A stretch of 64,000 nt of DNA from Clostridia bacterium (GTDB taxonomy: Bacteria; Bacillota; DSM-521; Neomoorellales; SLTJ01): positions 65,284 to 129,283 of the forward strand of contig JANLFO010000005.1 of the NCBI GenBank assembly GCA_024653205.1, read 5' to 3'. The stretch's first letter is position 1. Each line of letters opens with the position of its first letter. Made by a program: the position numbers and the translations under genes. The notes below the pieces were generated by a model. That model searched no databases. It saw only the letters and a list, made by a program, of their open reading frames with translations, and was not told the DNA's origin. Below are positions 19,971 to 59,005 of the stretch, in pieces.

Positions 19971-20056
19971 TTTTCATTCCTCCCCTACGCCAAGATTTCC
20001 GTCATCCTCGGGCTTCTCCCGGCCATACCCAACTCTCGCCTCCCGATATTAGCTCG

Positions 20057-20295: not shown

Positions 20296-20325
20296 GCCAA
20301 CTCGGGCCTTAGCCCGTCTGACCGG

Positions 20326-21069: not shown

Positions 21070-21077
21070 GGCCCGGG

Positions 21078-21428
21078 TCAGGCGCCCCGCTTCTCTCCGG
21101 CCAGTAAAGCGTAAAGGCGCCCGCTGAGCTCAAAGGTAGAGGCGGGCGAGGCAAACAGGGGAAGCCCCTCGGCCTCCGCGCGGGAGCAGATGTTTGCCCC
21201 CGGTTCCCGGCCCCCGGTGATTACCACCCCGGCGGCGTCTACCAGCAGGGCCACCGCCACCACGTTCTCGTGGGTCTGCAGGGTCAGCCACAGGCAGCCC
21301 TTTGGCGCCCGCGCCACCACGTCGCTCAGCAAATCCGATGCGTAGCCGTACCTAACCTCTCGGTCCAGTCCCCCGGCCCCGGCCAGCAGGCGCAGCCCGA
21401 GGGCTTGGGCGATTTCCGCAACCGTCAT
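21078..21428 (-). CDS. DRTGG domain protein
   Basis: About 116 aa with VITGGREP; a typical small DRTGG protein of hydrogenase regulatory clusters. Confidence 0.75.
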   Translation of the reverse strand: MTVAEIAQALGLRLLAGAGGLDREVRYGYASDLLSDVVARAPKGCLWLTLQTHENVVAVALLVDAAGVVITGGREPGANICSRAEAEGLPLFASPASTFELSGRLYALLAGEKRGA

Positions 21429-22747
21429 TCCCCGTTGTTACTCCTTTCCGGCCCCGCCAGCGGCGGCGGCAACTTCCTGGCCAAATCGGCCACCTCTTCG
21501 GCCAGCACCCGCACCTTTTCCCGGAGCAGGAAAATGCAGTCCGTTTCCGCGGCCTCTCCCTGCACCAGGTCCTCGGCCAAAGCCCGGCAGGTAGGGGAAC
21601 CGCAGGCCCCGCAGTCCAGTCCCGGCAGCGTGGCCAGGGTCTCTTCCACCTGACGCACCTTAACCAGACCGGTCTCGGCGTCCGGGGCCAGGCGGAAGAC
21701 CGGACGAGGCTCGAGCTTATGCCGGGACCGCCATTGGCCGCGCTCGGCCAGGGTAGCCAGCTCGGCTTCCGCCAGACCGGCGGGCGGCAACTGCCCCAGG
21801 AGATTCCGCAGGGCCTCGCCGGCAACAAAGGGATTCTGCACCATCAGCGCCCCGCCCACGCAACCGCCCGGGCAAGCCTGGGCCTCCACGAAGTCGAACC
21901 CCTCCAGCTCTCCTCTCTCGATCGCTTCCAGAACGCCGATCACGTGGTGGATGCCGTCCACCCGCAGCACCCTTGCCTCGCCCAGCGCCGCCCCTTCGCC
22001 GCCGCTCCTTCCCCAACCGACGCCGGCCCGGCCGGCCCGGGGAGGCAGCGGGTCCGCACGCTTTATGGCGGCCCGGAGTTCGGCGTAGACCGAGGCCACG
22101 GGGACTACCCCGTCCAGTACGGCCTCGCCCGCCGCCTGGGCCTGCCGGGCGGCGGTGATCTTGGCGGGGCAGGGAGAAAGGAAGAAAACTCCCACTTCCT
22201 CTTTGGAGCGGCCCTGCTCGTAGGCCTCCAAGCGCGCCAGACGGGCGGCCAGGTTCACCGGCGGCTCCACGGGCGAAACCTGTTCGGTCAGGGCGGGGAA
22301 CCGCACCTGGATGAGGCTCACCACCGCCGGGCAAGCGCTGGAGATCAAGGGCCGGAGCCCGGTGTACTCGGCCAGAAACCGCCCGGTCGCCCAGGAAACC
22401 ACCTCGGCGGCCAGGGCCACTTCGAATACCGCCGCAAACCCCAGCCCCACGAGGCCGCCGAGCACCCGGTCTATCCCCCGTCCGGGAAACTGGGAGTAAA
22501 GCGAGGGAGCCGGGAGGGCGACCGGGTAGGTAAACCGGCGGATGTCTTCCAGGGCGTCGCCCGAAGCCACCTTGGCATGGTTGGGGCAGACCCGGATACA
22601 CTCGCCGCAGTCTATGCACCGCTCTTCGGTGATCCGCGCCTTGCCTTCCCTGACCCGGATGGCCTCCGTCGGGCAATGCTTGATGCAGTTGGTGCAGCCT
22701 TTGCACTTGTCGCGGTCCAGCCGAACGGAATGAAAGTAGGCGGTCAC
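21425..22747 (-). CDS. HydS-like putative sensory [FeFe]-hydrogenase-domain Fe-S protein
   Basis: N-terminal 2x[4Fe-4S] ferredoxin motifs (CKGCTNCIKHCP, CIDCGECIRVCP). Divergent H-cluster motifs SSACPAVV, LSPCPAK and EAQACPGGCVGG. C-terminal CGACGSPTC cluster. Confidence 0.8.
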   Translation of the reverse strand: MTAYFHSVRLDRDKCKGCTNCIKHCPTEAIRVREGKARITEERCIDCGECIRVCPNHAKVASGDALEDIRRFTYPVALPAPSLYSQFPGRGIDRVLGGLVGLGFAAVFEVALAAEVVSWATGRFLAEYTGLRPLISSACPAVVSLIQVRFPALTEQVSPVEPPVNLAARLARLEAYEQGRSKEEVGVFFLSPCPAKITAARQAQAAGEAVLDGVVPVASVYAELRAAIKRADPLPPRAGRAGVGWGRSGGEGAALGEARVLRVDGIHHVIGVLEAIERGELEGFDFVEAQACPGGCVGGALMVQNPFVAGEALRNLLGQLPPAGLAEAELATLAERGQWRSRHKLEPRPVFRLAPDAETGLVKVRQVEETLATLPGLDCGACGSPTCRALAEDLVQGEAAETDCIFLLREKVRVLAEEVADLARKLPPPLAGPERSNNGE

Positions 22748-23100
22748 TGTGATCGCGTCCCCGTCTCCCAGAAAAAACGGGCGCGGACGGTAGTGCCCTC
22801 ACCCTCTACCGAAGTCACCTCTAAGTCGTCCGCGCTCCGGGCGATGTTGGGCAAACCCATACCCGAGCCGTAGCCCATTTCCCGTACCTCCGGGGGGGCG
22901 GTGCTGTAACCCTCCTGCATGGCCAACTCAATATCGGCTATGCCCGGCCCCCGGTCCACTGCTTCCACTTCTAGCTGACCCGGCCGGGCCCTAACCCATA
23001 CCTCGCCCGTGTAGGCGTGAATGACGATGTTCAGGGCGGCCTCAAAGACCGCCACTCCTACCCGCCGGGCCAAATCCGGGGGCAACCCGGCCTGGTGCAA
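22744..23100 (-). CDS. anti-sigma-regulatory-factor-type Ser/Thr kinase (GHKL ATPase)
   Basis: EAALNIVIHA, DRGPGI and GSGMGLPNI motifs. Family-like residues (SLEFRFSLKRGEFRAAGDAATHVRRT) continue in frame upstream to about 23178, after an AGGAGGG Shine-Dalgarno sequence. No ATG/GTG/TTG codon is present there, so the start is unresolved. Confidence 0.7.
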   Translation of the reverse strand: MHQAGLPPDLARRVGVAVFEAALNIVIHAYTGEVWVRARPGQLEVEAVDRGPGIADIELAMQEGYSTAPPEVREMGYGSGMGLPNIARSADDLEVTSVEGEGTTVRARFFWETGTRSQ

Positions 23101-25580: not shown

Positions 25581-27818
25581 TCAGCTTATCTGCAAGCCAG
25601 ACGCACAGCTGATCTGTCCTCTCTCCTGAGGCCTAGATTTCGCCGCCGGCGCCCCCCTCTCGGCCTCGGCGGCTACCTCCGTCCATCCCCGCTCGGAGAG
25701 CACCTCTAAGAAAAGCGCCGCCAGGTCGGGGTCAAACTGGGTGCCCGCGCAGCGGCGGATCTCCTCGACGGCTTCGGCCACGCTCTTGGCCTTCCGGTAG
25801 GGACGATCGCTGGTCATGGCGTCAAAGGCGTCCACAATCGCCAGGAGACGGCATTCGAGGGGGATCTCCTGCTCCTTCAGCCCCAACGGGTAGCCCGAAC
25901 CGTCCCATCGCTCGTGGTGCTTGAGGATAAGGTCCGCCACTCCGGCCAGTTCCGGAGTGGCCAGGGCGATGCGGTAGCCCTTTTCCGGGTGCTGGCGGAT
26001 AACCTTCCATTCGTCCTCGCCGAGAAGCCCGGGCTTAAGCAGCACCGTGTCCGGAATGCCCACCTTGCCTATGTCGTGCACCTGGGCCAGGAGGGCCAGG
26101 TCGTCCTTCTGCCGTGCGGGTAGCCCCAGGCGTTCCGCCAGGAGCCGGCACCAGTAGGCCAGGCGGCGGGCGTGGCCCTCGGCGAAACGATCCCGCTCTG
26201 CCAGCGCCGCCAGCAGAGCATCCACGATCTGGTTGCGGGCATTGGTTCCCTGGGAGAGCTTCTCCCGGTACATCCGGTCGTCGGCCTGACGATAGGCTTG
26301 CCGCAGCGATTCTCCCGGCGTATGCGCCGTAGCCAGCCCAAATGAGACGCTTAAGGGCAGATCGGTATGCCGTCGGTTGTATTCCTCTATTGCCGCCTGC
26401 AACCGCCTTACTATTGCCGCTCCGGTGGCCTCGTCGGTGTTGGGCAGAAGGGCCACGAACTCGTCTCCCCCTACCCGGGCCACCACGTCCGAGCGCCGGA
26501 GCGTGTGCTGCAGAATCCGGGCACAGGCCACCAAGAGCTCGTCCCCCCGGTGGTGGCCCAGACTGTCGTTGACCAGCTTCAGCCCGTTCACGTCGGCCAT
26601 GATCACGCTCACCGGGAAGTCTTCCGGCCGAGCCAACCGACCAAGCTGTTCCTCGAAGTGAGCCCGGTTGTAGAGACCGGTAAGCTGATCGTGAAGGCTT
26701 ATGTACTCCAGCCTTTCCGCGAAGCGCTTTTTCTCGGTGACGTCGATCACGCTGCCCAGGGTAACCCTCCGGCCCTCGTGCTCCCAGGAAGCGACGGTTT
26801 CTTCTACCCAGCGCAGGCCGCCGCCCTTGGTGACCAGCCGGAACTCGTAAGGCCGGGCCTCGCCGCCTTTGAGCATGCGCACCGCCTCCTGACGCACCTT
26901 CTCCCGGTCTTCGGGAAAAACCAGGCTCAGAGAGTCCCGGCCGACCAATTCCTCCAGCGTGTAGCCGGAAAGCTGCTCGAACTGGGGATTTACCGTCTCG
27001 AACTTGCCTCCGCTGACTATGTACATGCCGATGGGCGTGTGCTCGAAGGTGCTGCGCAGGAGGTCCTCGCGGCGCCGACGCTCACTCACGTCCCTCACCG
27101 TGGCCAGCAGGGCCTCCCGGCCGGAGAAGACCATCTTGGTAAAGTAGACCTCAGCGTCGAAGGTAGACCCGTCGGCCGGGCGCCGGGCCGGCCATTCCAG
27201 GTAGAGGCTCTCCTCCTCCGCCTCCTCCGCCCACCATCGGTCCACGTCCTCCCGAGGGCAGCCGGGGCCGGAATAATCCTGCCAGAAGCACCGGCCCAAA
27301 GCCCCCTCCCGGTCGGCCAGCCGGTACAGCCGCAACACCGAGCGGTTTATCTCCAGGACCCGGCCGCCGGGCTCGAAAATGAAAACCGCTTCCTGTACGT
27401 TATTAAGGATGGCGCGGAAAGCCCGCTCCGACTGCCGGGTTTTCCGCTCCATCTCCTTTACCGCGATCACGTCCTCCAGGCGACGGGCGAAGAGCTTTAA
27501 GAGCCGCCGTTCCCGGGCCGACGGCCGGTGGGCCGGCTCCAGGTATACCATCCCCTTCACCCCGCGGGACATCGCGTGGACCAGGGCCTCTTCCCCTACC
27601 TGTCGGATTTGTTCCGGCGTAGGAGCGCGGCCCGCGAAGCCCCAGTGCCCCAGGTCGACCGCCCTCCCGTTATCCTCCAAGGTTATGGCCAGTCGGCGAA
27701 GGCCCAATATCCGGGCTCCCTTTTCCACCGCTTCCCGCACCAAATCCTGATAGGTAGGGGGAAAAGAAAAGCTGGCCAGCTCATAAATGGCAAGTAATTC
27801 CCAAAGGTCGAAACCCAC
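25581..27818 (-). CDS. multidomain c-di-GMP signalling protein (N-terminal sensor, 2x PAS, GGDEF, HD-GYP)
   Basis: Intact GGDEF (VGGDEFVALLP) and HD-GYP (HDIGK...HHERWDGSGYPLGL) motifs, with PAS-like blocks before them. Confidence 0.9.
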   Translation of the reverse strand: MGFDLWELLAIYELASFSFPPTYQDLVREAVEKGARILGLRRLAITLEDNGRAVDLGHWGFAGRAPTPEQIRQVGEEALVHAMSRGVKGMVYLEPAHRPSARERRLLKLFARRLEDVIAVKEMERKTRQSERAFRAILNNVQEAVFIFEPGGRVLEINRSVLRLYRLADREGALGRCFWQDYSGPGCPREDVDRWWAEEAEEESLYLEWPARRPADGSTFDAEVYFTKMVFSGREALLATVRDVSERRRREDLLRSTFEHTPIGMYIVSGGKFETVNPQFEQLSGYTLEELVGRDSLSLVFPEDREKVRQEAVRMLKGGEARPYEFRLVTKGGGLRWVEETVASWEHEGRRVTLGSVIDVTEKKRFAERLEYISLHDQLTGLYNRAHFEEQLGRLARPEDFPVSVIMADVNGLKLVNDSLGHHRGDELLVACARILQHTLRRSDVVARVGGDEFVALLPNTDEATGAAIVRRLQAAIEEYNRRHTDLPLSVSFGLATAHTPGESLRQAYRQADDRMYREKLSQGTNARNQIVDALLAALAERDRFAEGHARRLAYWCRLLAERLGLPARQKDDLALLAQVHDIGKVGIPDTVLLKPGLLGEDEWKVIRQHPEKGYRIALATPELAGVADLILKHHERWDGSGYPLGLKEQEIPLECRLLAIVDAFDAMTSDRPYRKAKSVAEAVEEIRRCAGTQFDPDLAALFLEVLSERGWTEVAAEAERGAPAAKSRPQERGQISCASGLQIS

Positions 27819-27822: not shown

Positions 27823-28983
27823 CTACCACCCCGCCGCCGCTATCACGGTCTTGTTGTAAAACAGGGGCACCCCGCAGAGGCTGCTGATTTCACCGAAGGT
27901 AAGCATGCCGAAAACCGGCAGGCCCGGCCCCACCTGCTCCGCCACGGCGGCGATTTCCCTCTGTGCCTCCTGGCCCAACAGCCGCAGGCGGGACACGCAA
28001 TCCAAAACCAGAAGCAATCTCGGGCCCGGAGAAGCCGCCAGGGCCGTCCGCACCGCCCGCCGGGCCGCAGCCACAATCCCTGCGGCATCGGCCTTCATTA
28101 CCGTGGCGATGCTGTTCTCCGGGACCTCGGCCACAAATAGTAGGCTCCCGTCCTCTCCCGCCTCCACCGGATCGCGGATGATGAATTCCCCTCCCACGGC
28201 GGGAAGGCCCAGGGGATAGCGCATCCCCCACCAGGGGAAGGCTTCGCGGGTGCATCCCTCCACCACCTCGGTGTAGCGCACCAATGCCGGCAGGCCGTCG
28301 ATTTCGTAGACCCGCCGACCCTCGGCTCTGGTTACGGCCAGCGGCTCCCCGGTGGGAATCCAGCCGTGCTCCAGCCCCTGGCTTGTCCGCAGCCCGCCGA
28401 GCAGGGCCACAGCCGCGGCCCCGCTCGCCCACCCGGCCTGGGTAAACTGAAAGCCGCAGGGCAGCCGCCGGTGGTCTCCGCTGCCGCCGCCGAGGTAGGC
28501 GTAGTCCGGCCCCAGGGCGTCGTACAGGCCCCGCAGCAGTTCGGAAACGTTAGCGCAGCGGGCGTCCGGAAAAACAAGCACCGTGCCCGGCCTCCCCCCG
28601 GCCGCAGCTGCGGCCGCCAGCGCCCGACCGGCCTCCACGCCCTTGCGGAACGGATCCTCGGCCGCACCCGGTTCCAGGTAAGTGGCGGCATCGACCGCTC
28701 CTCCCCCAAGGGTCAGAACCCCTACCCCCCGGTCATGGACCTTGAAACCGATGATTATACCCGCCGCCCAGGTACCCACGAACGGCCGATCGCCCAGGAG
28801 GCTGCAGACGGCGGCTCGGATTGCCTCCGGATTGTATTCGCCCGCCACCAGTACTACGGTCAGGACCGGCGGTCCGGCGGAAGCCAGCGCCTGCTCCAGG
28901 GCGATCCGGACCGCCGGCTCCGGCTCCGGGTGGTCGCCGAAGCCGATGCCTACCTTTAGGTCGGGTGTGGCTTTTGCCGACAT
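27823..28983 (-). CDS. FIST-domain sensory protein
   Basis: FIST_N/FIST_C-like organisation (GFGDHPEPE..., LGGGSGD, GMLTFGEI). Lies 4 nt upstream of the GGDEF/HD-GYP gene. ATG preceded by GGGGAGGG. Confidence 0.75.
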   Translation of the reverse strand: MSAKATPDLKVGIGFGDHPEPEPAVRIALEQALASAGPPVLTVVLVAGEYNPEAIRAAVCSLLGDRPFVGTWAAGIIIGFKVHDRGVGVLTLGGGAVDAATYLEPGAAEDPFRKGVEAGRALAAAAAAGGRPGTVLVFPDARCANVSELLRGLYDALGPDYAYLGGGSGDHRRLPCGFQFTQAGWASGAAAVALLGGLRTSQGLEHGWIPTGEPLAVTRAEGRRVYEIDGLPALVRYTEVVEGCTREAFPWWGMRYPLGLPAVGGEFIIRDPVEAGEDGSLLFVAEVPENSIATVMKADAAGIVAAARRAVRTALAASPGPRLLLVLDCVSRLRLLGQEAQREIAAVAEQVGPGLPVFGMLTFGEISSLCGVPLFYNKTVIAAAGW

Positions 28984-29241
28984 GCTCGCCCTCCCCTGCG
29001 CTGCCCGCAAACAGGCGAGATTCTTTCGGCGCACACCCGCCAAAACCCTGCTTTGGGCGGCTTCCAGGCGCCAAATTTCTTCCCTGCGCTCGCGGCAACC
29101 TCCTTCTCGAGGCAATTCGACGCTCCGAGGGCCCGGCACCGCCCTCAGGAGGCCCAACCGGGCAGGGTGCGCAGCCGGCGGCGCGGCCGGTCGGTGCCGG
29201 GGCGCGCCGCCGGGGTGGCTGCGGGAACCGGTTCCGCCTTT

Positions 29242-31527: not shown

Positions 31528-33102
31528 ATGATCACCCTGGACTTGCCGGAAAGGTACAATGCGGTCACCACCTTTGTGGACGGCCACGTGGAGGCCGGGC
31601 GTGCCGACCGGGTGGCCATACGCTACGGTGATGAGGAGATCACCTACGGCCGGGTATATTCCATGGTCAACCGCTGCGGAAATGTCCTCCTCTCCCTGGG
31701 AGTAGAGATGGAGAACCGCGTCCTGTTGCTCCTGCCCGACTCTCCCGAGCTGGTCTACGCTTTCTTCGGCGCCATGAAAATCGGGGCCGTGCCCGTGCCG
31801 GTGAACAATCGCCTCACCGCCCAGGACTACCTGTACATCCTCAACGACAGCCGGGCCAAGGTGCTGGTGCTCGCCGAGGCACTGCTCCCCGCCATAGAAT
31901 CCATCCGCCCGCAGCTCAAGTACCTCAAGCATGCCCTGGTGGTGGGCCCGGCCCCGCCGGGCTACCTCGGCTTCCACGAGCTTCTTTCCGCCGCCTCGCC
32001 GGACCTGGACCCCGCCGACACCCACCGCGACGACGTGGCCTTCTGGCTGTACAGTTCCGGCAGCACCGGGCTTCCCAAGGGAGTGGTACACCTTCACCAC
32101 GACTGGATCCACTGCTGCGAGTTCTACGCCAAAGGGGTTTTGGGAATTACGCCCGAGGACGTTTCCCTTTCGGTCTCGAAGTGCTTTCACGCGTACGGGC
32201 TGGGCAACGTGCTCATCTTTCCCTTCTACGTCGGCGGCTGCACCGTGCTCTACCCGGACGTACCCCGCCCCGAGCCCTTCCTGGCCGCCGCCGAGCGCAA
32301 CCGGGTCAGCCTCTTTTACGGGGTGCCGACCTTTTTCGCCCTGGCGCTGGCCATCCCGGACATAGAGAAGAAGTATCCCCTCCGCCACCTGAGGCTCTGC
32401 GTTTCCGCCGGCGAGCCCCTGCCCGCAGCGGTGTACACCCGCTGGAAAGAGCGCTTCGGGGTGGAAATCCTCGACGGAATCGGCAGCACGGAGGTTTTGC
32501 ACATCTATATTTCCTCCCGGCCGGGACGGGTAAAGCCCGGAAGCTGCGGCCAGCCGGTGGAAGGCTACGACGTGCGCATCCTGGACGACCGTGGGCGGGA
32601 ACTGGGCCTGGGCGAAACCGGGACCCTGTGGGTGCGGGGGGAGAGCGTTACCCCGTATTTCTGGAACAAGCACCAGAAGACCAAGGCGCAAATCGTTGGG
32701 GAGTGGTACAATACCGGCGACCGGTGGCACCGGGACGAAGAAGGTTACTTCTGGTATGCCGGAAGGTCGGACGATGCCTTCAAGTCCCGGGGAGAATGGG
32801 TGGAACCGGTGGAGATAGAGAACGTGCTCATCGAGCACGAGGCGGTGCTGGAAAGCGGAGTGGTGGGAGTGGAGGACAGGGACGGGCTGCTCAAACCCAT
32901 GGCCTTCGTGGTGCTGAAGCCGGGCTTCGCAGCCTCGGAAACCCTGGCGGATGAGCTCAGGGCCTTCGTGCGCTCCCGCCTGGCCGGTTATAAGGTTCCT
33001 ACCTGGATCCGGTTCGTTTCCGACCTGCCGAAAACCGCCACCGGGAAGATCCAGCGCTTCCGGCTGCGCGACGAGGCTGCGGCCGCGCGGGCGGAGGCTT
33101 AG
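31528..33102 (+). CDS. benzoate-CoA-ligase-family AMP-dependent aryl-CoA synthetase
   Basis: AMP-binding motif WLYSSGSTGLPKGVVH, YNTGDRW, and C-terminal PKTATGKIQRF. Confidence 0.85.
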   Translation: MITLDLPERYNAVTTFVDGHVEAGRADRVAIRYGDEEITYGRVYSMVNRCGNVLLSLGVEMENRVLLLLPDSPELVYAFFGAMKIGAVPVPVNNRLTAQDYLYILNDSRAKVLVLAEALLPAIESIRPQLKYLKHALVVGPAPPGYLGFHELLSAASPDLDPADTHRDDVAFWLYSSGSTGLPKGVVHLHHDWIHCCEFYAKGVLGITPEDVSLSVSKCFHAYGLGNVLIFPFYVGGCTVLYPDVPRPEPFLAAAERNRVSLFYGVPTFFALALAIPDIEKKYPLRHLRLCVSAGEPLPAAVYTRWKERFGVEILDGIGSTEVLHIYISSRPGRVKPGSCGQPVEGYDVRILDDRGRELGLGETGTLWVRGESVTPYFWNKHQKTKAQIVGEWYNTGDRWHRDEEGYFWYAGRSDDAFKSRGEWVEPVEIENVLIEHEAVLESGVVGVEDRDGLLKPMAFVVLKPGFAASETLADELRAFVRSRLAGYKVPTWIRFVSDLPKTATGKIQRFRLRDEAAAARAEA

Positions 33103-34781
33103 GCCAGCAGCCCGGCGCGCTCGCGCTCCCGCACCGCGCCGACGAAAGCCGGCACCAGCTGCGGGTCGTACAGGGTGCCGGCGCTGCGGATTATCTCCTG
33201 CAGGGCTTCGGAGGTGGTCAGGGCCCGGCGGTAGGGCCGGCTGCTGGTCATGGCGTCAAAGCTGTCCGCCAGCCTGATGATACGGGCCAGGAGGCTTATG
33301 CTCTCTCCCTGCAGCCCGTCCGGGTAGCCGGAACCGTCGTAGTTCTCGTGGTGAGAGCGCACCGCTTCCGCCGCCCGCCGGAAGGCGGGGAGAACTCCCA
33401 GCATCTCGCTGCCCCATACCGGGTGACGCTTCATGACCTCCCATTCCTCGTCGTCCAGCCGGCCGGGCTTGGTGAGGATCTCGTGCGGGACCTCCAGCTT
33501 GCCGATGTCGTGCAGGTAAGCGGCGTGGCGCAGGACGGTCTTGTCTTCCTCCGAAAGACCCAGCTTGTCCGCCAGCGCCAGGGTGTACACCACCACCCGC
33601 TCGGAGTGGCCGAAGGTGTAGCGGTCGCGCAGGTTTACCAGGGCCACGAAAGCCTGCAGGGCGCCGAAGGCGTCCTCCCGCCGTAGCGTGTCGAGCTGCC
33701 CCAGGATGGACTTGTAGAGGTAGGTCTTGCCCCGGCTGTACTTAACGCGGAAGAGATCGTCATCTGCCGCCTGGTAGAGGGCCCCGGCTTCGGCGGCATC
33801 GGTGGGATAAACAGCCAGGCCGTAGTTCACCGCCGGCCGCAGGACGAGGGCCTCGGGTTCCTGGCGGGCCAGGTACTCCTTGAGCACCTGTTCGGCCTGG
33901 AGACATAGGTCCTCGCCCACTTCCACCGCCTCCATCTTCGCCGTTTTCGGGAGCACCACGGCAAACCTGGCTCCACCTGACCGGGCGGCGTAAGCTCCGG
34001 CCGGTAACGCGCGCTTAACCACTTCCGCCATGAGGGTGAGCATCTCGTCGCCCCTCTGGAAACCCAGGCGGGCGTTGTAATGCCGGAACTGGTCGAGATC
34101 CAGAAGCAACAGGGCTACGGGACTTCCCAGGGGGCCGGCCTCCGCCAGGGAGCGGCCCAGGGCTTCCAGGAGGCGACGGTCGTTGAGCAGGCCGGTGAGA
34201 GGATCGCGGTCGGCCAGGGTGGCCAGCTCCGCCTGGGTCCGGCGCTCCACCCGGATGAGGCTGGCCACCAGCCAGGCCAGCAGCACGGTCACGCCGAGGA
34301 CTATGGCGTCCACCCGGAATACTTCGGGGGAGATGCCTCCCAGGGCCCGGTAGTCCACCCAGAAAACCAGGCTGCCGGCCAGGGCCGCCACCAGGGTTCC
34401 CCAAACCGGCCCCAGGACCACGCCGGAAACCACGGCGGGAACGATCAGCACCACCTTGGCGCCCTCGTAGCCGTGGCTGTGCCACAGCAGCGCCGCAGCG
34501 AGCGGAAGCACCACCACCAGCAACAGGATTTCGTCCACGCGCGGCGCTCCCAGGGAGGGAACCTGGATCAGGAGCTTCCGACCGACGTACAGGGCGGCCA
34601 CGGCTAGGAATGGCAAAAGACTAATGTAGCTGGAAACATAGCTTGGATAGTCTATGTTGCCACCGAGGCGAGTGCCATAGAGACTCCCCAGCATCCAGGC
34701 AAAGAACAGAAAACAAAAAGCATTGAAGATTACCAGGATGTCGGAAACCTCGCGGCCCCTTCTCTTTATCCAGTTGCCCAT
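33099..34781 (-). CDS. membrane sensor (about 6 TM) with a degenerate GGDEF and an intact HD-GYP c-di-GMP phosphodiesterase domain
   Basis: About 200 N-terminal hydrophobic residues. The GGDEF-fold A-site reads SGGARF. HD-GYP is intact (HDIGK...HHENYDGSGYPDGL). ATG preceded by GGAGGGGAGG. Confidence 0.85.
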   Translation of the reverse strand: MGNWIKRRGREVSDILVIFNAFCFLFFAWMLGSLYGTRLGGNIDYPSYVSSYISLLPFLAVAALYVGRKLLIQVPSLGAPRVDEILLLVVVLPLAAALLWHSHGYEGAKVVLIVPAVVSGVVLGPVWGTLVAALAGSLVFWVDYRALGGISPEVFRVDAIVLGVTVLLAWLVASLIRVERRTQAELATLADRDPLTGLLNDRRLLEALGRSLAEAGPLGSPVALLLLDLDQFRHYNARLGFQRGDEMLTLMAEVVKRALPAGAYAARSGGARFAVVLPKTAKMEAVEVGEDLCLQAEQVLKEYLARQEPEALVLRPAVNYGLAVYPTDAAEAGALYQAADDDLFRVKYSRGKTYLYKSILGQLDTLRREDAFGALQAFVALVNLRDRYTFGHSERVVVYTLALADKLGLSEEDKTVLRHAAYLHDIGKLEVPHEILTKPGRLDDEEWEVMKRHPVWGSEMLGVLPAFRRAAEAVRSHHENYDGSGYPDGLQGESISLLARIIRLADSFDAMTSSRPYRRALTTSEALQEIIRSAGTLYDPQLVPAFVGAVRERERAGLLA

Positions 34782-34809
34782 GGCTGGCCTCCCCTCCTGC
34801 CAGAGGCGT

Positions 34810-34842
34810 CTGGGCCCAGCCACCTCCTCGGTGGGGGCCCAG
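34810..34842 (-). promoter_or_regulatory. strong GC hairpin between agrD and the HD-GYP gene
   Basis: CUGGGCCCCCACC-GAGGA-GGUGG(CU)GGGCCCAG, about 13 bp, with no U-tract. It is a possible attenuator or mRNA-stability element. Confidence 0.4.
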
Positions 34843-34858
34843 ACGTTCCAGAAGCCCC

Positions 34859-34993
34859 TTATTCCTCCACCAGAGCGGAGGGCACTTCCGGCTGATACAA
34901 CAACATGACACACGCAGGTCTTACCCCGATCACCGCCACCAACGCCAGCATGGAGCCCACTACCGGCAGCAGGCGCGCCAACAGCCTCTTCAA
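34859..34993 (-). CDS. agrD: AgrD-type cyclic (thio)lactone autoinducer peptide precursor, 44 aa (not in the ORF track)
   Basis: Hand translation gives (TTG)KRLLARLLPVVGSMLALVAVIGVRPACVMLLYQPEVPSALVEE*. It has an amphipathic leader, a single Cys followed by 4 hydrophobic residues, and then the conserved YQPEVPxxL acidic recognition tail. Starts 8 nt after the agrB stop, with an AAGGGG Shine-Dalgarno sequence. Confidence 0.7.
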   Translation of the reverse strand: MKRLLARLLPVVGSMLALVAVIGVRPACVMLLYQPEVPSALVEE

Positions 34994-34998
34994 CCCTA

Positions 34999-35613
34999 TC
35001 ACCCCTTTCCCATGGCAAGATTATCCACGGCCGCGACCAGCCGGTGGCCGGCCCGGGTAAGGGTTAGGCCCTGCCACCAGAGGCCGCCGCCGAGGGCCAA
35101 GGCCAGATCCGCGCGCCACGGGAGCAGCGCCAGGGACGCGACGCCCAGCAGGACGAGCGCCGAGAGCGACAGCCGCCGCAGGCGGCGCCGCCTTTCCGCC
35201 GACCTTACGGGATGGGCGGGCGTATCCACGGGCGCCAGCGTGGCCACCACTACCGCCGTCCACACCAGAGCCGCGCCCACGATTGCCGCAATCGCCGCCG
35301 GGGGCAGATCCGCCAGTTCCCGGGCCGTCCGCCCCAGTCCCGCGGCCACGACCGCTCCCACCAGGCAGCAGACCAGGGGCGAGCGGCTGTGGGCGCCGCC
35401 GCTGAAGAGGCGCAGGGTGCTCGTCCCCACCGTGGCCACCAGAGCGCCCGCCAGGGCGCCGGCCAGCCAACCGGCCAGGGCCACCGCCGCCCAGTCTGCG
35501 GCCGTATACACCAGCACCTGGAGCCCGTAACGGATAACCTCTTCTTCCGCCGGGGACAGCTCCAGCCTCCGCGCCAGGCCGGAGGCCGCCGGCCGCACGA
35601 ACTCCAGCTTCAC
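34999..35613 (-). CDS. agrB: AgrB-family accessory gene regulator B (AgrD-processing membrane endopeptidase)
   Basis: Polytopic membrane protein with RLFSGGAHSRSPLVCCLVG. The His and Cys are 7 residues apart, as in the catalytic H77/C84 pair of S. aureus AgrB. GTG start. Confidence 0.85.
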   Translation of the reverse strand: MKLEFVRPAASGLARRLELSPAEEEVIRYGLQVLVYTAADWAAVALAGWLAGALAGALVATVGTSTLRLFSGGAHSRSPLVCCLVGAVVAAGLGRTARELADLPPAAIAAIVGAALVWTAVVVATLAPVDTPAHPVRSAERRRRLRRLSLSALVLLGVASLALLPWRADLALALGGGLWWQGLTLTRAGHRLVAAVDNLAMGKG

Positions 35614-36179
35614 GGCACCAACGTACCCCGCCTCCGGTTGTAAGCATTGACCGCCAGGGCCACGGCCAGGAGCACCGCCTCGTAGGGTGCGGCAAAGAGA
35701 GCCCGATAGAAGGGGTTGACAAATACTTCCTGATAAGTCATTTTGGTCACGCTCAATAGGGGTTTCAAATATAAGAACTCAGTCCCGATGGTGATGGCAA
35801 AGCAGAGTAGGACAGCGTAAAGGACTCGCGCCATCCGTGCCCTGGTAAAGGCCCAAGTGTATAGGGCCAACGAAACCACCAACACCACCGTATGCACTAC
35901 GGGCAACAGGCGCACCAGATTGGTGGCGGTCTGCAACAGGGCAATGTAGAAGGTCCGGGGCCTCAGCAGGCGATAGTTGAGGAAGCTGAGCACAACCAGG
36001 GTCATAACCAAACTTTCCGGAAAATCCTGCAGCGCCAGTGCGTAGAGCAAGCCTGGAAAGCGCTCTTCTACCAACTCCTGCACCTCCGCCCTGCCCGTCG
36101 GGCAACGGCACCGATACGGGCGCCTTCCTTCCGGTACATTCGACGGACAGGGCAGAATTTCCTCCTCCATCGCCGGCAT
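35610..36179 (-). CDS. polytopic membrane protein of unknown function, translationally coupled to agrB
   Basis: Cys-rich cytoplasmic N-terminus (CPSNVPEGRRPYRCRCP) and about 5 TM helices. Its TGA stop overlaps the agrB GTG start (GTGA). Only the 3' 570 nt of track ORF 35610..36761 is credible. Confidence 0.6.
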   Translation of the reverse strand: MPAMEEEILPCPSNVPEGRRPYRCRCPTGRAEVQELVEERFPGLLYALALQDFPESLVMTLVVLSFLNYRLLRPRTFYIALLQTATNLVRLLPVVHTVVLVVSLALYTWAFTRARMARVLYAVLLCFAITIGTEFLYLKPLLSVTKMTYQEVFVNPFYRALFAAPYEAVLLAVALAVNAYNRRRGTLVP

Positions 36180-36208
36180 TTTCCATGTCCGGCCGGGCCG
36201 CGCCCGGC

Positions 36209-36874
36209 TTACCAGCCGAAGAGCCGCACCACCTCCGCCAGGGGGCGCCGGGTGCTGCGGAAGCGGTTGATGAGCGCGTCGGCATCGGCCCGACCGAGGG
36301 CCACGCCGATCACGACGGCCAGCTCTTCCGGAATGCCCAACTCGGCCCGGATCAGATCCGGGTAGGCTACCAGGTTGACCGCCGGGGCGGAATCCAGCCC
36401 GTACTCCCGCGCGGCCAGCATCAGGCTCTGGGCGAAAGACCCCAAATCGAAGAGGGACCACGGGTTGAGGCTGCGGTCCATGCAGAGATAGACCACCACC
36501 GGAGCCCCGAAAAAGGAGTAGTTGTACCGGGCTATGGCCTGCCTGGTTTCCGGGGCCTCGGGGTCGAGCCCCAGGAGCTTTAACCGCGTACCCTGGAGCG
36601 CCTCTATCCGCTTCTGGTGGGCGGCCGGCCAGTGCTGCACCGGCTCCAGATCGAACCTGGGCGCTACTCCCTGCTCCAGCCGGGCCAGATAGCCGGCCCG
36701 CAGCCTTTCCAGGACTTCGCCCGTGGCCACGAAGACCTCCCAGGGCTGGGTGTTGGCCCAAGAGGGTGCCTGGTTGGCCGCCTCCAGAATCCGCATCACG
36801 GTATCCTTGTCCACCGGATCGGGCCGAAAGGCCCGGATAGTTCGCCGGGAAAGAATGGCCTCGACGACGTTCAC
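36209..36874 (-). CDS. nitroreductase-family oxidoreductase
   Basis: ILSRRTIRAF and QAPSWANTQPWEV signatures. GTG start after GGGAGGAGG. Confidence 0.9.
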   Translation of the reverse strand: MNVVEAILSRRTIRAFRPDPVDKDTVMRILEAANQAPSWANTQPWEVFVATGEVLERLRAGYLARLEQGVAPRFDLEPVQHWPAAHQKRIEALQGTRLKLLGLDPEAPETRQAIARYNYSFFGAPVVVYLCMDRSLNPWSLFDLGSFAQSLMLAAREYGLDSAPAVNLVAYPDLIRAELGIPEELAVVIGVALGRADADALINRFRSTRRPLAEVVRLFGW

Positions 36875-36943
36875 GGCTTTCCTCCTCCCGGTTGCCGTCC
36901 TTTGACGGCGTTCGTCGGCTTCGCTCCTTACTGCCTTAATAAT

Positions 36944-36972
36944 AAGATAAATCCTTCAAGGGGTCTTGTCAA
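36944..36972 (-). promoter_or_regulatory. candidate sigma-A promoter for the nitroreductase-agr operon
   Basis: On the minus strand: TTGACA (36972..36967), a 17-nt spacer, then TATCTT, in an unusually AT-rich patch. Confidence 0.45.
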
Positions 36973-40041: not shown

Positions 40042-41652
40042 TCAGCGTTCATCCTCTCTCGCTTTCAGTTGCTCGAGCAACCGCTCTATCTCCTCTAGCT
40101 TTTGCTGTATCTGGCGCACCAAATCCTCTCGGGCCTCCGGCACCGCCCCGGCCGGACCGGAGGGCGGCACCGGCCTTCCGGCCAGGAAGGCGGCCACCTC
40201 GGCATCGGTTTCTAGCTCCACCACGCTGTTGTTCCGGCTGTCCACAAAAGCCTGATAGGCCACGCCCGCGTAGTCCTGGGGGATAACCGCCGTTTTCCAA
40301 TAGAGCACGCCCTCCTTGACCACGGGCAGCGGCTCCACCATGTTGAAGAGGCTCCAGTCCACCAGGGGGTTGGCCCGGCGCACGTAGTCCAGGGCCCGAA
40401 TGGGGCCGGTGAGCACCTGGTCCTCGGGCAGCTCGAAAAGCTCGATCCGGCCGGTGCGCGCGTCCACCAGGAAGATCTTGAAAATGCCGTGGCTCTGGCC
40501 GTAGGGCTCGGTGCTTATGAACCACTTCAGGCCCTCCGCGGTATCCAGGAGGAAGGGCTGCTTGTTCTCCCCCACGTCCTGGATCTCAATCTGGTCCCGG
40601 TGCAGGAAGAAGCGGTTGATAACCCCGTTTTTGTACTGGTAGGCATCCACGTAAGTGCGGGCCAGATGCTCGGGGAAAATCAAGTTGTCCTGGAGCACCG
40701 GGTGGGAGAGCGCCTCCGCCGGCGGCACCAGGGCGATGTGGCCCTGGGTATCCACCACAAAGGAGCCGGCGAAAACCGGCACCGCGTAGACCAGCCCCCA
40801 CCGGAAGCCGTAGTCATAGGCGATGGCGGGAGCTACGGTATAGATCTCGCCGTCCTTAGGAATATAGTACGTCTCCTCGGTGTTGACCCAGTAGCGCACC
40901 CGGAATAGGTTCCACCAGAGGCTGTCGGTGACCTTCATCCCCTCGCCGATCCGCATTTGCTTCCAAACCATTTGCGAGTTGCGCTCCTGGGTGGTGGCGT
41001 CCACGTAGGCCATGCCGGCGTTCTTGGCGGTGAATACCAGCACCAGGCCGTCCGGCACCAGCGGAAAGGTATAGCAAAGCTTGCCGTTGATCCGGGCTAT
41101 GTGCTCGGTCCCCAGCTTGTACTGGCTCAACTGCAGGGCGTCGCGGGCGTAACGGCGGGCCACCACCTCGGGCATGAGCCGCAGGTTCGCGGTGGCGTCG
41201 GGCAACCGCTCGATCCGGTGATACTCCACCCGGGAAACGATGTCCAACTGCCGGGCCACCTGGGCCAGCAGGGGCAGAAAAATCAACAAGACCGGCAGCA
41301 CTACCCAGTAGGAAAGCCAGAGGGTGCGGAAGCGCATCTGTCCCCGTTCCCCGGTCTTCCGGCCTTTATCGTCCTTCTTTTCGTACTCCCAAATCTTGAC
41401 GCCGGTCCAGCGCCGGCGAAACCAGAGGAAGTGGAGCGCCAGCCAGATGGCGAGGGCCTCGAAAACGGCCGGATGGGTATAACAGAACATGAGCGGCGCG
41501 TGCCACCAGGTACGCAGGTACCAGAGCAGCAGCGCAAGGACCGCTATTTCTAGGGCTACCAGCCAGGCCCGCCGCCGCCAAAGCCAATCTCGCCGGCCTG
41601 TCCGGCTCCCGCCCGCCGTAGGCCCCAAAGTACCGCCGGTATCCTTGGTCAT
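40042..41652 (-). CDS. membrane-anchored protein of unknown function (N-terminal TMs, large extracytoplasmic domain, C-terminal coiled coil)
   Basis: 536 aa with good codon bias. Three to four N-terminal TM helices and a C-terminal LVRQIQQKLEEIERLLEQLKAREDER. Ends 15 nt before the copA start. A faint resemblance to UPF0182-type proteins is unverified. Confidence 0.7.
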   Translation of the reverse strand: MTKDTGGTLGPTAGGSRTGRRDWLWRRRAWLVALEIAVLALLLWYLRTWWHAPLMFCYTHPAVFEALAIWLALHFLWFRRRWTGVKIWEYEKKDDKGRKTGERGQMRFRTLWLSYWVVLPVLLIFLPLLAQVARQLDIVSRVEYHRIERLPDATANLRLMPEVVARRYARDALQLSQYKLGTEHIARINGKLCYTFPLVPDGLVLVFTAKNAGMAYVDATTQERNSQMVWKQMRIGEGMKVTDSLWWNLFRVRYWVNTEETYYIPKDGEIYTVAPAIAYDYGFRWGLVYAVPVFAGSFVVDTQGHIALVPPAEALSHPVLQDNLIFPEHLARTYVDAYQYKNGVINRFFLHRDQIEIQDVGENKQPFLLDTAEGLKWFISTEPYGQSHGIFKIFLVDARTGRIELFELPEDQVLTGPIRALDYVRRANPLVDWSLFNMVEPLPVVKEGVLYWKTAVIPQDYAGVAYQAFVDSRNNSVVELETDAEVAAFLAGRPVPPSGPAGAVPEAREDLVRQIQQKLEEIERLLEQLKAREDER

Positions 41653-45723: not shown

Positions 45724-45993
45724 GTGATGACCATAAGCGTAAGCCAGGCGAAAGCGAGGTTTCTGGAGCTTGTCCGGCGCGCCGAGAATAACGAGGGTGC
45801 CATCGTCGAAAAGAAGGGTGTCCCGGTGGCCGCCGTTGTTCCTTACAGGGAATACGCCAGAATGAGGCGAATCCAGAGCTACCTGGCCCTGCGCAGGCTC
45901 CGTCGGATCGCCGCGGGCACGGGGCTGACGGCGGAGGAAATCTACCGGGAGTCCCGGCGCGAGCTTGAAACCAGAGGCACCCATGAGCACTAA
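45724..45993 (+). CDS. Phd/YefM-family type II antitoxin
   Basis: ISVSQAKARFLELVRRAENNEGAIVEKKGVPVAAVVPYREY is the canonical Phd/YefM N-terminal fold sequence. Confidence 0.85.
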   Translation: MMTISVSQAKARFLELVRRAENNEGAIVEKKGVPVAAVVPYREYARMRRIQSYLALRRLRRIAAGTGLTAEEIYRESRRELETRGTHEH

Positions 45994-46429
45994 AGACTTG
46001 GTAGTAGACGCCAGCGTGATCCTGGCCGCCTGCTTCCCCGACGAAAAGGCTCCCCAGGCCTTGCGGCTGATGGAAGACTACGCCACCGGCAGGGTGGACC
46101 TCTGGGCGCCGAGGCTGCTGGCTCTGGAGTTTATCAACGCCTGCCTGGTCGCCAGAAGACGAAGCCGCATCGGTGACCCCCTCCTCGACAACCTGGTTGA
46201 CCACTTCCTCGCCCTGGAAATCCGTTGGGTCGGCGTGGAAAAGAACGCCCGGCAGGTGCTTGCGCTCGCGAAGGAGTACGGCCTTACGTCCTACGACGCC
46301 GCCTACGTGGCCGCGGCGAAAATCCTGGGGTGCAGGATGGTCACCGGCGACCGCGGGCTCTACAACGCCGTGAGAAACGGCCTCCCGTTTGTCGTGCCTC
46401 TGGAACGTTACGGCGAAGAATGGAGGTAG
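45983..46429 (+). CDS. vapC: PIN-domain ribonuclease toxin (VapC family)
   Basis: LVVDASVILA (first acidic residue), LTSYDAAYVAAA and MVTGDRGL. Overlaps the antitoxin stop by 11 nt. Confidence 0.85.
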   Translation: MSTKDLVVDASVILAACFPDEKAPQALRLMEDYATGRVDLWAPRLLALEFINACLVARRRSRIGDPLLDNLVDHFLALEIRWVGVEKNARQVLALAKEYGLTSYDAAYVAAAKILGCRMVTGDRGLYNAVRNGLPFVVPLERYGEEWR

Positions 46430-46640
46430 GGATAGGATGTTACTTCCCCCCGCGCCGGATGGCGTCCCAATCTTGGCCTTTCCAGGTGGGGCGGGCCCAG
46501 TCCAGGTAGGGCGTGCCCAAACCGCCGCCCCAGGACGGGAGGGAGTGGGGCAGGTCGCGGGCCGGGCGGCGGGGCCGGAGTAGCGGTAGCGGCCTCGGCC
46601 GGCGTCCCAGCAGGCAGGAAATTATACCAGGGGGAATTTA

Positions 46641-46689
46641 CACATCCAGGAGGTCACAGGTTCAAATCCTGTCAGCCCCACCAGGAAAG
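46641..46689 (+). repeat. direct repeat copy 2 (attR-like), an orphan tRNA-Val 3' half
   Basis: CACATCCAGGAGGTCACAGGTTCAAATCCTGTCAGCCCCACCAGGAAAG with no matching 5' half. It is not a functional tRNA. Confidence 0.85.
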
Positions 46690-47008
46690 TCAAGGGCTTG
46701 CGGGTTTGCCAACAGTCCCCAGGAGCCGGTTTGATGCAACCGTGATGCAACCGGAACCGAAAGCCCCGGGGCCGCAACCCTTCTAACCCGCAATAAAAAG
46801 ACCGCCAGGGTGCCAGCCTGGTGACACACTTGCGCCTTGGCTACGGTGAGCGCTGCTTACCGGCAATGGCGATATTGCGCGTCACCGCCTTAACGTTCTT
46901 GAGCAGTATTCCCTGTTTCGCCACGTCCTTCTGCTTCCCTTATGTCCACCTTGACTTAAGAAGATTAACTAACGGCCTTTATACCTGGGCCACCCTACTC
47001 CTCTCCCC

Positions 47009-47317
47009 CTAACAGTTTCGGTGGCTCTTCCTTGGCCGGATAGACGGCTTAGCGGCTCTTGCCCAATAGACATCTCCCCTCGGCCCTATGGCGGTGACAA
47101 CAAACCACCTTTGCTCCCTATCCACCATAATCAGCACCCTCCGGTCTCCTGCCCGCAGACTCCATTCCGGTCGGCCCTTGAGAGGCTTGACCGGCACCTG
47201 CCACGGGTTTTCCTGAAGCTTCTGGAGAGCATTCAGTATCCGCTCCTGCTCCTTTCGGGGCAGTTTCTCCAGGTAGCGCCGGGCCGGCCGGAGGATGACC
47301 ACCTGCCACTCAGCCAC
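47009..47317 (-). CDS. RelE/ParE-family type II toxin
   Basis: WQVVILRPARRYLEKLPRKEQERILNALQKLQENP ... LKGRPEWSLRAGDRRVLIMVDREQRWFVVTAIGPRGDVY. Confidence 0.8.
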   Translation of the reverse strand: MAEWQVVILRPARRYLEKLPRKEQERILNALQKLQENPWQVPVKPLKGRPEWSLRAGDRRVLIMVDREQRWFVVTAIGPRGDVYWARAAKPSIRPRKSHRNC

Positions 47318-47576
47318 GTTCTTCCTCCAGGAGTTCCTGTCTCACTTTTTCCAGGGGTTCTCCCTTGTCCAAACCGGCGAGGTAGGCCTGCCAGGCCGTT
47401 TCACTTGCCTTCGCTTCTTCGGGGGTTAGAGGCTCGTCAAACTCTACCCCGCGGCGCCCGCTTTGGACACCGGCGTCCGGGCGTGGCCCAGGCAGGCCTT
47501 CAATTGATGTTTTCCCGTTGCCTGCTCGCTCTTCCCGTGGTACGATGACCTCGGGAGGGGGACAGGATGGCATGCC
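47310..47576 (-). CDS. putative cognate antitoxin of the RelE-like toxin
   Basis: Overlaps the toxin start by 8 nt. Acidic C-terminus (EAKASETAWQAYLAGLDKGEPLEKVRQELLEEERG). The start is uncertain and there is no clear Shine-Dalgarno sequence. Confidence 0.45.
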   Translation of the reverse strand, partial: GMPSCPPPEVIVPREERAGNGKTSIEGLPGPRPDAGVQSGRRGVEFDEPLTPEEAKASETAWQAYLAGLDKGEPLEKVRQELLEEERG

Positions 47577-47663
47577 GGAAGAAGCAGGAGCCTCCCTGGC
47601 CCAACACTCGGTCCGACAGGCCATAGCCGGTCTGTACCCCTCGGTAACGAAGGAGAAGCGACA

Positions 47664-58995: not shown

Positions 58996-59005
58996 CCGTC
59001 TCACC

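Follow-up and report, generated by a model that had tools for sequence, protein, structure and literature searches.

Peptide quorum sensing in Firmicutes is understood to follow two routes, in which the signal passes either from a kinase to a regulator (agr, com, fsr) or by peptide import to a cytoplasmic regulator (RRNPP). The staphylococcal agr systems fall into specificity groups, within which the peptide and the sensor half of the AgrC kinase vary together. Coupling of a quorum signal to cyclic di-GMP (c-di-GMP) is described for signals of the diffusible signal factor (DSF) family, which act through RpfC and the HD-GYP response regulator RpfG in Xanthomonas and through RpfR, a PAS-GGDEF-EAL protein and receptor for Burkholderia DSF (BDSF), in Burkholderia. 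To our knowledge, the input signals of HD-GYP enzymes are mostly unknown. Among clostridia, the C. perfringens locus CPE1563-CPE1562-agrB-agrD is reported to contain two uncharacterized open reading frames (ORFs) co-transcribed upstream of agrB (PMC2706048), and characterized clostridial autoinducing peptides (AIPs) are often tail-less, six-membered, and rearrange to homodetic rings (PMC8251862). Here, a 64,000-nucleotide stretch of a Clostridia bacterium genome (assembly GCA_024653205.1, contig JANLFO010000005.1, forward-strand positions 65,284 to 129,283; hereafter "the window") was found to carry an agr-type cassette in which agrB and agrD are followed by the gene for a membrane protein with six predicted transmembrane (TM) helices, a degenerate GGDEF domain and an HD-GYP domain. 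Conserved synteny and allelic co-variation suggest, with a probability of about 0.65, that this HD-GYP protein is the cognate peptide receptor.

The window sequence matches contig JARYLW010000015.1 of the metagenome-assembled genome (MAG) GCA_029907445.1 ("Clostridia bacterium"), and an identical stretch is present in JGI metagenome 3300038743. Its G+C content ranges from 53 to 70% and is ∼66% in the agr region (33099-36972), whose features are listed below in the direction of transcription.

36944..36972, minus strand: sigma-70-like promoter candidate, TTGACA-17-TATCTT, upstream of the nitroreductase gene (consensus scan)
36209..36874, minus strand: nitroreductase, 221 amino acids (PF00881, E 1.3e-27)
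35610..36083, minus strand: TM157, small polytopic membrane protein, 154-157 amino acids, first gene of the conserved cassette
35692..35922, minus strand: hypervariable island 1, inside TM157, ∼codons 56-131 (comparison with locus L001)
34999..35613, minus strand: AgrB, 204 amino acids, membrane cysteine endopeptidase/cyclase for AgrD (PF04647, E 6.3e-28)
34859..34993, minus strand: AgrD precursor, 44 amino acids from a TTG start (TIGR04223, 35.0 bits)
34553..34971, minus strand: hypervariable island 2, covering the AgrD core and tail, the spacer hairpin and receptor codons 1 to ∼75 (comparison with locus L001)
34808..34845, minus strand: GC-rich hairpin in the 77-nucleotide agrD-receptor spacer, 34782-34858 (folding)
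33099..34781, minus strand: putative AIP receptor, 6TM-GGDEF(GGARF)-HD-GYP, 560 amino acids (GGDEF E 4e-25, HD_5 E 1.5e-43)

These elements had been described in an earlier note drawn from the letters of the window, and profile searches together with reading of the sequence recovered all of them in place with small corrections only. One correction concerns the small polytopic membrane protein, referred to here as TM157. It is present as described, but the 189 amino acids assigned to it, reaching to 36179, are probably over-extended; its length is probably 154-157 amino acids, with homologues beginning at the MVEERF position and the NCBI call giving 157.

AgrB matches PF04647 with 97.8 bits (cut-off 23) and carries the His/Cys motif SGGAHSRSPLVC (read as GGAHSRSPLVC), in which the His and Cys, the catalytic pair of agr-type endopeptidases, lie 7 residues apart. 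Right after agrB follows a short ORF with a Cys core and a conserved follower, as expected of AgrD, whose product exceeds the cut-off of 19 bits for NCBIfam TIGR04223. The earlier note had found this 44-residue precursor by hand. Its TTG start (MKRLLARLLP...) agrees with the starts of the homologues, and a longer form of 47 residues begins at the GTG at 35002. The predicted core, C-V-M-L-L(-Y), is succeeded by the follower QPEVPSALVEE. All 12 loci scanned for the motif were found to contain an ORF that keeps the frame ...[KR]P-x-C-x4/5-Y-[QE]-P-[EK]-[VL]-P-x-x-L..., and within this frame the core is hypervariable, with different residues after the Cys in every locus (VMLL, VGWL, VFWF, FGFF, TLVH, ASFIL, WSLL, WLII, FGGAL, GFLM, FGYPW and MWYF). 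Gene calls place an ORF of 43-44 amino acids in the AgrD slot in L020, L021 and L023. The lack of agrD conservation that would have refuted the earlier note's reading was thus not seen. Because AgrB and AgrD both pass these tests, the biosynthetic half of the locus is, on sequence evidence, a bona fide agr-family member.

The genomic context was surveyed for every full-length match to the sensor domain of the HD-GYP protein and for seven further loci from species-representative genomes (MAGs of Peptococcaceae, Ammonifex, Syntrophomonadaceae, "Clostridia" and "Bacillota"). Retrieval by the sensor domain alone is unbiased with respect to agrB, and in 11 of the 12 distinct loci so retrieved that had readable context, agrB and an agrD ORF lie directly upstream of the receptor gene. 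The order in these 11 is TM157 homologue, AgrB, short AgrD ORF and 6TM-GGDEF-HD-GYP gene. Retrieval by TM157 likewise returned the full cassette, in three of the three long contigs examined. The conserved core is TM157-AgrB-AgrD-6TM-GGDEF-HD-GYP, present in 15 distinct cassettes from MAGs of Moorellales, Peptococcaceae, Ammonifex, Syntrophomonadaceae and relatives, all uncultured, and the adjacency is kept down to 22-35% sensor identity while the flanking genes change between lineages. The assemblies GCA_029907445.1, GCA_049721505.1 and GCA_014896385.1 are among its carriers. The earlier note had placed an HD-GYP protein where the AIP receptor normally sits; this assignment is borne out by the co-occurrence of agrBD with HD-GYP across several clostridial orders. 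The pattern that would have spoken against it, an agrCA pair beside agrBD with the HD-GYP gene as a variable neighbor, was not encountered, as no locus has agrCA in the receptor position.

The nitroreductase had been counted as the first gene of a five-gene operon. It adjoins the cassette only in the window, L001 and L020, and since the cassette of most lineages lacks it, it is an incidental, lineage-specific neighbor and was rejected as a component of the system; in L004, L006, L021 and L023 the upstream slot is filled by other genes. The promoter proposed in front of it held up as the top sigma-70-like match of the region (10 of 12 positions; two sites against 0.3 expected in shuffles), and where relatives lack the nitroreductase, the cassette must be driven from another site.

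Two related loci carry additional genes upstream of the cassette. An Ammonifex MAG (L015:3749-5712) has a second pair, agrB2/agrD2, directly upstream (AgrD2 core NCWSWLI, follower YEPVAP), itself preceded by a 275-residue membrane protein with an intact GGDEF domain, and a 70%-identical TM-GGDEF protein lies upstream of the cassette in Bacillota MAG163 (L016:4897-5715). Here the phosphodiesterase receptor may have its cyclase counterpart.

Allelic variation was examined against L001, a contig from an independent metagenome (JGI 3300012949). Over 12.3 kb the window and L001 have ∼99% nucleotide identity, with 97-100% in nearly all 60-nucleotide windows, and only two divergent islands were found, with 60-72% (island 1) and 60-73% (island 2) nucleotide identity. 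Island 2 is one uninterrupted tract running through the AgrD core, the follower, the spacer and the N-terminal tail, TM1, outer loop 1 and TM2 of the receptor (to ∼codon 75). The predicted cores are A-C-V-M-L-L in the window and M-C-V-G-W-L in L001, and despite these differing cores the AgrB encoded between the islands is 99% identical in amino acids. Nei-Gojobori estimates of synonymous divergence (dS) and of the nonsynonymous to synonymous ratio (dN/dS) between window and L001 were as follows.

Nitroreductase: dS 0.006, dN/dS 0.71
AMP-ligase: dS 0.008, dN/dS 0.44
AgrB: dS 0.033, dN/dS 0.14
TM157 island: dS 0.92, dN/dS 0.26
AgrD core and tail: dS 2.2, dN/dS 0.11
Receptor codons 1-80: dS 0.66, dN/dS 0.38
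Receptor codons 81-250: dS 0, no differences, no dN/dS value

Island dS is 30-300 times that of the flanks. Because dS is far above that of the flanks and dN/dS lies at 0.11-0.38, the islands are, as judged from these substitution estimates, old functional alleles under purifying selection that have been moved by recombination into a near-identical background, as opposed to products of decay. The co-variation of the AgrD core with the receptor N-terminus is, at this level, the signature expected of a ligand-receptor specificity pair, and the linked hypervariability of peptide core and sensor that marks specificity groups is present, mainly in one near-isogenic pair. In L020, a syntenic Moorellales MAG with ∼80-90% background identity and the core T-C-F-G-A-L, identity minima fall at both island positions. 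Assembly chimerism was considered as the origin of island 2 and rejected, given the contiguous tract, the intact ORFs, the dN/dS below 1 and a window allele identical in two independent assemblies. A metagenome scan with AgrB for further alleles returned two short contigs only. One of them, the low-coverage bioreactor contig L025 (651-1757), has a FeoB-like GTPase ORF in frame with the last ∼20 TM157 codons, followed by a 98%-identical agrB; whether it arose by deletion or rearrangement or as a chimera of assembly, this junction is uninformative.

The candidate receptor comprises a 6TM sensor (residues 1-∼185), a GGDEF domain (190-349) and an HD-GYP domain (378-542). Its six N-terminal helices are seen in the AlphaFold2 (AF2) secondary structure of a model with low confidence (predicted local distance difference test score, pLDDT, 63), and by the positive-inside rule residues ∼35-47, ∼102-106 and ∼148-151 should lie outside the cell. 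The GGDEF fold is recognizable (PF00990, E 4e-25), but the active-site motif GG[DE]EF is absent from both the window protein and its L020 counterpart, each of which has GGARF. The HD-GYP motifs HDIGK and HHENYDGSGYPDG (HD...HHExxDGxGYP) are intact in the window protein (PF13487 HD_5, E 1.5e-43) and in all 14 aligned receptors. A last protein with ∼6 TM helices, a degenerate GGDEF site and an intact HD-GYP domain, as the earlier note had it, thus agrees with motifs, domain matches and helix prediction. The aligned receptors show GGARF, GSDEF, GNDEF, GGEVF, GGDKF, GGDEF and GGEEF at the GGDEF site, and the cyclase motif is intact only in L015 and L023 (GGDEF) and in L010 (GGEEF). With GGARF in this position, the GGDEF domain of the window protein is predicted to be unable to make c-di-GMP and the protein is not to be classed as a cyclase; the motif rules out cyclase activity in this lineage. 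Other degenerate GGDEF domains serve as dimerization or allosteric modules, and by analogy the one here is probably a dimerization, regulatory or allosteric module. Among the relatives with intact GGDEF or GGEEF, some receptors may be bifunctional and switch between c-di-GMP synthesis and breakdown.

The sensor domain (residues 1-185) is rare. One match was found in an indexed set of 5.8 billion proteins and 11 in an exhaustive HMMER pass over 1.84 billion representative proteins; a profile of the sensor alignment run against the 5.8-billion-protein index added one fragment among the matches listed, with low-complexity membrane words dominating the candidates. Across the family, mean pairwise identity is lowest in outer loop 1 (13%) and highest in the HD-GYP domain (59%). 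Single family members match membrane-sensor families weakly (6TM_PilS 4e-6, DUF4118 6e-5, 7TMR-HD 3e-4), and the window receptor's own sensor has no significant match to Pfam membrane-sensor families.

The partners of a canonical agr locus were not found among the window ORFs scanned. That AgrC and AgrA are missing from the window, as the earlier note stated, stands for the 36 window ORFs scanned with Pfam, a scan that fell short of every ORF: it returned no membrane histidine kinase, no LytTR or Response_reg match, and HATPase matches only in two small soluble proteins of a hydrogenase cluster. In contrast to AgrC, the protein in the receptor slot lacks a kinase domain and contains GGDEF and HD_5 domains instead, and none of the scanned ORFs encodes an AgrA-like LytTR response regulator. 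In the 15 cassettes, agrCA was seen neither within the unit nor beside it. Because its sensing half fails the tests for both AgrC and AgrA, the system is, by its predicted domains, not to be filed as agrBDCA; it is agr-like up to the receptor and then diverges. One Eubacteriales MAG has, at L023:2671-4756, a histidine kinase of the LytS type (PF06580) together with a LytTR regulator. This pair is ∼4 kb away on the upstream side of the cassette, with acpS, a YjeF-family gene and alr in between, an arrangement unique among the loci.

TM157 has no Pfam or NCBIfam match, and its 35 homologues are all annotated "hypothetical" and all derive from MAGs. Wherever the contig of a locus extends far enough, TM157 immediately precedes agrB, and its stop codon overlaps the agrB start. 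Eleven positions are invariant (Q19, D20, P22, E23, T54, N55, L60, H64, P124, R127 and P133), and the least conserved stretch across the family coincides with island 1, for which P0014 and P0015 provide further alleles. The AF2 model is all-helical with a pLDDT of 90.3, and neither a fold search of the PDB (best E 3.3) nor a PDB profile search gave a match. Weak matches to Peptidase_M50B (5 of the 35 members, best E 0.008) were not accepted as a protease identity because TM157 has no HExxH motif, and kinship as a paralogue of the receptor sensor was rejected at an hhalign probability of 1%. In Bacillota MAG163 (L018:273-1919), three tandem TM157 paralogues, ∼46-47% identical to the window TM157, precede agrB, and a second MAG has a tandem TM157 pair (P0018/P0029). 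Synteny and allelic co-variation, the sole grounds for this assignment, lead us to infer that TM157 is a new specificity-linked component of the cassette, for which a peptide-specific maturation or export step would be the most economical role. Such a role would be functionally comparable to that of MroQ in S. aureus (PMC9388083) and would make TM157 a candidate for the poorly understood export or leader-removal step of AIP biosynthesis.

Regulation of the cassette was considered from its spacer. Folding of the agrD-receptor spacer gave -49.2 kcal/mol (z -4.4), and its hairpin lacks a T-run and was not called as a terminator in the window. A strong hairpin occupies this position in 12 of 14 loci, with a T-run after it in the lower-GC loci L005, L006 and L023. 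Such a structure suggests attenuated read-through, by which more precursor than receptor would be made. A c-di-GMP riboswitch or other RNA element that would close a feedback loop was sought, and nothing was found in the window or in 13 related loci. The cassette contains no transcription factor gene, and therefore autoinduction, if there is any, would be indirect, via c-di-GMP effectors elsewhere in the genome.

In the mechanism we propose, AgrB would strip the follower (Y)QPEVP... from the 44-residue AgrD and cyclize the core through its Cys, as expected from family membership, with cleavage before or after the invariant Tyr leaving the ring C-V-M-L-L or C-V-M-L-L-Y. The peptide would be exported and trimmed, with TM157 acting either in a peptide-specific step (leader removal or export) or as a partner of the receptor. 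It would then bind the six-helix sensor from outside, and the co-variation with the AgrD core suggests that specificity resides in TM1, outer loop 1 and TM2. The signal would pass via TM6 and the adjoining helix into the degenerate GGDEF domain and alter the phosphodiesterase activity of the HD-GYP domain, by activation or by inhibition. Cell density would in this way be converted directly into a c-di-GMP level, with the AgrC/AgrA phosphorelay replaced by a one-component membrane receptor.

Other arrangements of the same parts were weighed. TM157 could be the actual peptide sensor or an obligatory co-receptor, with the HD-GYP protein serving as its output subunit through protein contact. TM157 is kept in the cassette as strictly as the HD-GYP protein, has a hypervariable island of its own (dS 0.92, dN/dS 0.26) and invariant polar residues inside its helices, and has been triplicated (L018) and duplicated (P0018/P0029), paralogue expansion being likelier for binding or specificity proteins than for housekeeping enzymes. 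Variation in TM157 alone, however, leaves unexplained why the TM1-loop1-TM2 segment of the receptor also varies, contiguously with the AgrD core, and TM157 has neither a recognizable signaling domain nor detectable kinship to the sensor (hhalign 1%), while its place upstream of agrB with overlapping stop and start resembles that of a biosynthetic partner. We regard this arrangement as unlikely. Slightly less likely again is a reading in which the HD-GYP protein, a co-located or co-regulated c-di-GMP enzyme, senses a different cue in the membrane and the peptide is read by a distal histidine kinase like VirS. Clostridial agrBD loci without adjacent agrCA are known, and VirS is the reported C. 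perfringens receptor (PMC2706048; PMC7492741). A hairpin or terminator-like structure separates agrD from the HD-GYP gene, the view is of 64 kb of genome, and GGDEF/HD-GYP proteins are common here, a second one being encoded 5 kb away (25581-27818). Against this, adjacency is kept in 15 cassettes to 22-35% sensor identity despite changing flanks, and the sensor domain is essentially confined to the cassette context. For a mere neighbor, moreover, the tract that changes the AgrD core would not be expected to run without a break into its N-terminal membrane segment and stop there, with zero differences in the next 170 codons. Far less probable is that the cyclic peptide is an antagonist or toxin of the RiPP type (ribosomally made peptides with post-translational modifications), with the variable membrane proteins providing self-immunity or export and no density signaling involved. 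Bacteriocins and their immunity proteins likewise combine a variable peptide with variable membrane proteins, and TM157 has no known function; against this, HD-GYP and GGDEF outputs are signaling domains and not immunity functions, the HD-GYP domain is the most conserved part of the receptor, AgrD passes a curated AgrD-family model, and the conserved unit contains no transporter or modification enzymes.

The reading of the HD-GYP protein as the peptide receptor also has points against it. The strong hairpin that parts agrD from the receptor gene resembles a terminator in the lower-GC relatives; it makes one obligatory transcript less certain, and the receptor gene may be transcribed partly on its own. 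The allelic argument is drawn mainly from one near-isogenic pair, with L020 and the partial TM157 alleles P0014 and P0015 as supporting trends only. Between islands 1 and 2, the linkage over ∼0.7 kb of conserved agrB could be an artefact of metagenome assembly; within island 2 this does not apply. The L001 receptor gene carries a frameshift: a single one just before GGARF splits it into ORFs of 313 and 262 amino acids (L001:4252-5921), reflecting either an error of sequencing or a naturally occurring variant that is receptor-null ("signal-blind"). No homology between the sensor and that of AgrC could be demonstrated: the PDB sequence search was without matches, and with an AF2 model of low confidence (pLDDT 63) the fold search is uninformative. 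One receptor homologue with an intact GGEEF (L010-L012) is without adjacent agrBD. This gene (L010:9566-11689, also in L011 and L012) follows a 105-residue membrane/zinc-ribbon-like ORF, and may encode an orphan receptor, one eavesdropping on peptides of other origin. Lastly, the view of the genome spans 64 kb, and a distal AgrC- or VirS-like kinase elsewhere in it is possible.

Several further features were observed in the window. A FIST-domain protein (27823-29157, minus strand; weak NosP-like match) is encoded directly upstream of the second GGDEF/HD-GYP protein, which has two PAS domains (25581-27818) and a GGDEF score much above that of the receptor. The pair, which is conserved in L001 and L002, resembles a two-gene module for c-di-GMP sensing in its own right, at a distance of ∼5 kb from the agr cassette. 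A 536-residue protein without Pfam or NCBIfam match (40042-41652, minus strand) is flanked by an EamA transporter and a copper P-type ATPase, a position kept in L020. A large [FeFe]-hydrogenase region occupies 8239-23100, in which the ORFs at 8239-12286 resemble maturase genes and those at 13779-18562 the genes of a multisubunit hydrogenase; it also encodes an Fe-hydrogenase-like sensory protein (21425-22747; NCBIfam/Pfam), small soluble HATPase proteins (18940-19497 and 22744-23100) and PHP and DRTGG proteins. Toxin-antitoxin pairs are found in 45724-49712 (Phd/PIN, and nucleotidyltransferase/HepT twice). After them comes a lower-GC island at 53700-60000 (53-56% vs ∼65%), whose sugar-modification genes encode a UDP-GlcNAc 2-epimerase, an ATP-grasp protein and a methyltransferase; it probably serves glycosylation and was acquired by horizontal transfer.

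Taken as a whole, we put it at somewhat better than even that the cassette represents a previously undescribed form of Gram-positive quorum sensing, in which an agr-type peptide would be read directly by a 6TM-GGDEF-HD-GYP receptor-enzyme that sets c-di-GMP, with no phosphorelay or dedicated transcription factor. Strain specificity groups would be maintained by recombination, the orphan protein TM157 would act as a maturation factor or co-receptor, and in relatives with intact GGDEF, or in L015 with its TM-GGDEF partner and second agrBD, c-di-GMP could be pushed up by one peptide and down by another. If this is correct, it would constitute a third Firmicute route, one that couples an extracellular peptide pheromone directly to c-di-GMP turnover, links the two main systems behind the switch between free-living and surface-attached states, and provides a defined peptide ligand for an HD-GYP enzyme. 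It would also offer a possible answer for "orphan" agrBD loci, namely receptors other than kinases. The natural alleles, CVMLL and CVGWL with different sensor N-termini in otherwise identical proteins, are a ready-made pair for specificity swaps. A search of the full-text literature returned no report tying agrBD to a GGDEF/HD-GYP receptor, in line with the earlier note's view that this wiring is uncharacterized; one C. difficile paper mentions both, GGDEF and HD-GYP being named a few times in its body text. Nor was a quorum input into c-di-GMP hydrolysis found described for ribosomal peptide pheromones.

Comparison with described systems shows known parts in a new conserved wiring, with one orphan component. 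Like staphylococcal agrBDCA, the cassette has an AgrB peptidase with a His/Cys motif, an AgrD with an amphipathic leader, Cys core and acidic/proline follower, the order biosynthesis, precursor and polytopic membrane receptor, and a hypervariable stretch reaching from the peptide core into the N-terminal membrane region of the receptor encoded downstream. Unlike it, the cassette has no histidine kinase or LytTR regulator, and the cytoplasmic part of the predicted receptor is GGDEF plus HD-GYP, so that its output would be a second messenger as opposed to phosphorylation and transcription. In further contrast, the cassette AgrB is not variable between alleles (99% amino acid identity), an extra conserved membrane protein, TM157, bears a second variable segment, and no RNAIII-like or autoinduction element was identified here. 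With the agrBD-only loci of C. perfringens and C. difficile (agr1), the cassette shares a clostridial host and an agrB and agrD without adjacent agrCA, as well as, with the C. perfringens locus, an extra uncharacterized ORF upstream of agrB, although neither CPE1562 nor CPE1563 is among the 35 TM157 homologues. Its core is likely a tail-less ring of five or six members, similar to other clostridial AIPs (PMC8251862). It differs from those loci in having a dedicated candidate receptor directly downstream that co-varies with the peptide. As in RpfC/RpfG and RpfR, a quorum signal would be channeled into c-di-GMP hydrolysis, with RpfG also using an HD-GYP domain and RpfR also being a one-component receptor-enzyme. 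The Rpf systems, however, use fatty acids in Proteobacteria, sensed by the RpfC kinase or a cytoplasmic PAS domain, whereas in the Firmicute cassette a ribosomal cyclic peptide would be sensed by six helices integral to the membrane, in direct fusion with the enzyme. The plan of 6TM_PilS, DUF4118/KdpD, 5TMR-LYT and 7TMR-HD is also that of a multi-helix N-terminal sensor embedded in the membrane, nearly devoid of a periplasmic domain and joined to a cytoplasmic output. None of these families is known to have a genetically linked peptide ligand, and the cassette sensor, with its linked candidate ligand, stands apart from them as a separate and rare family.

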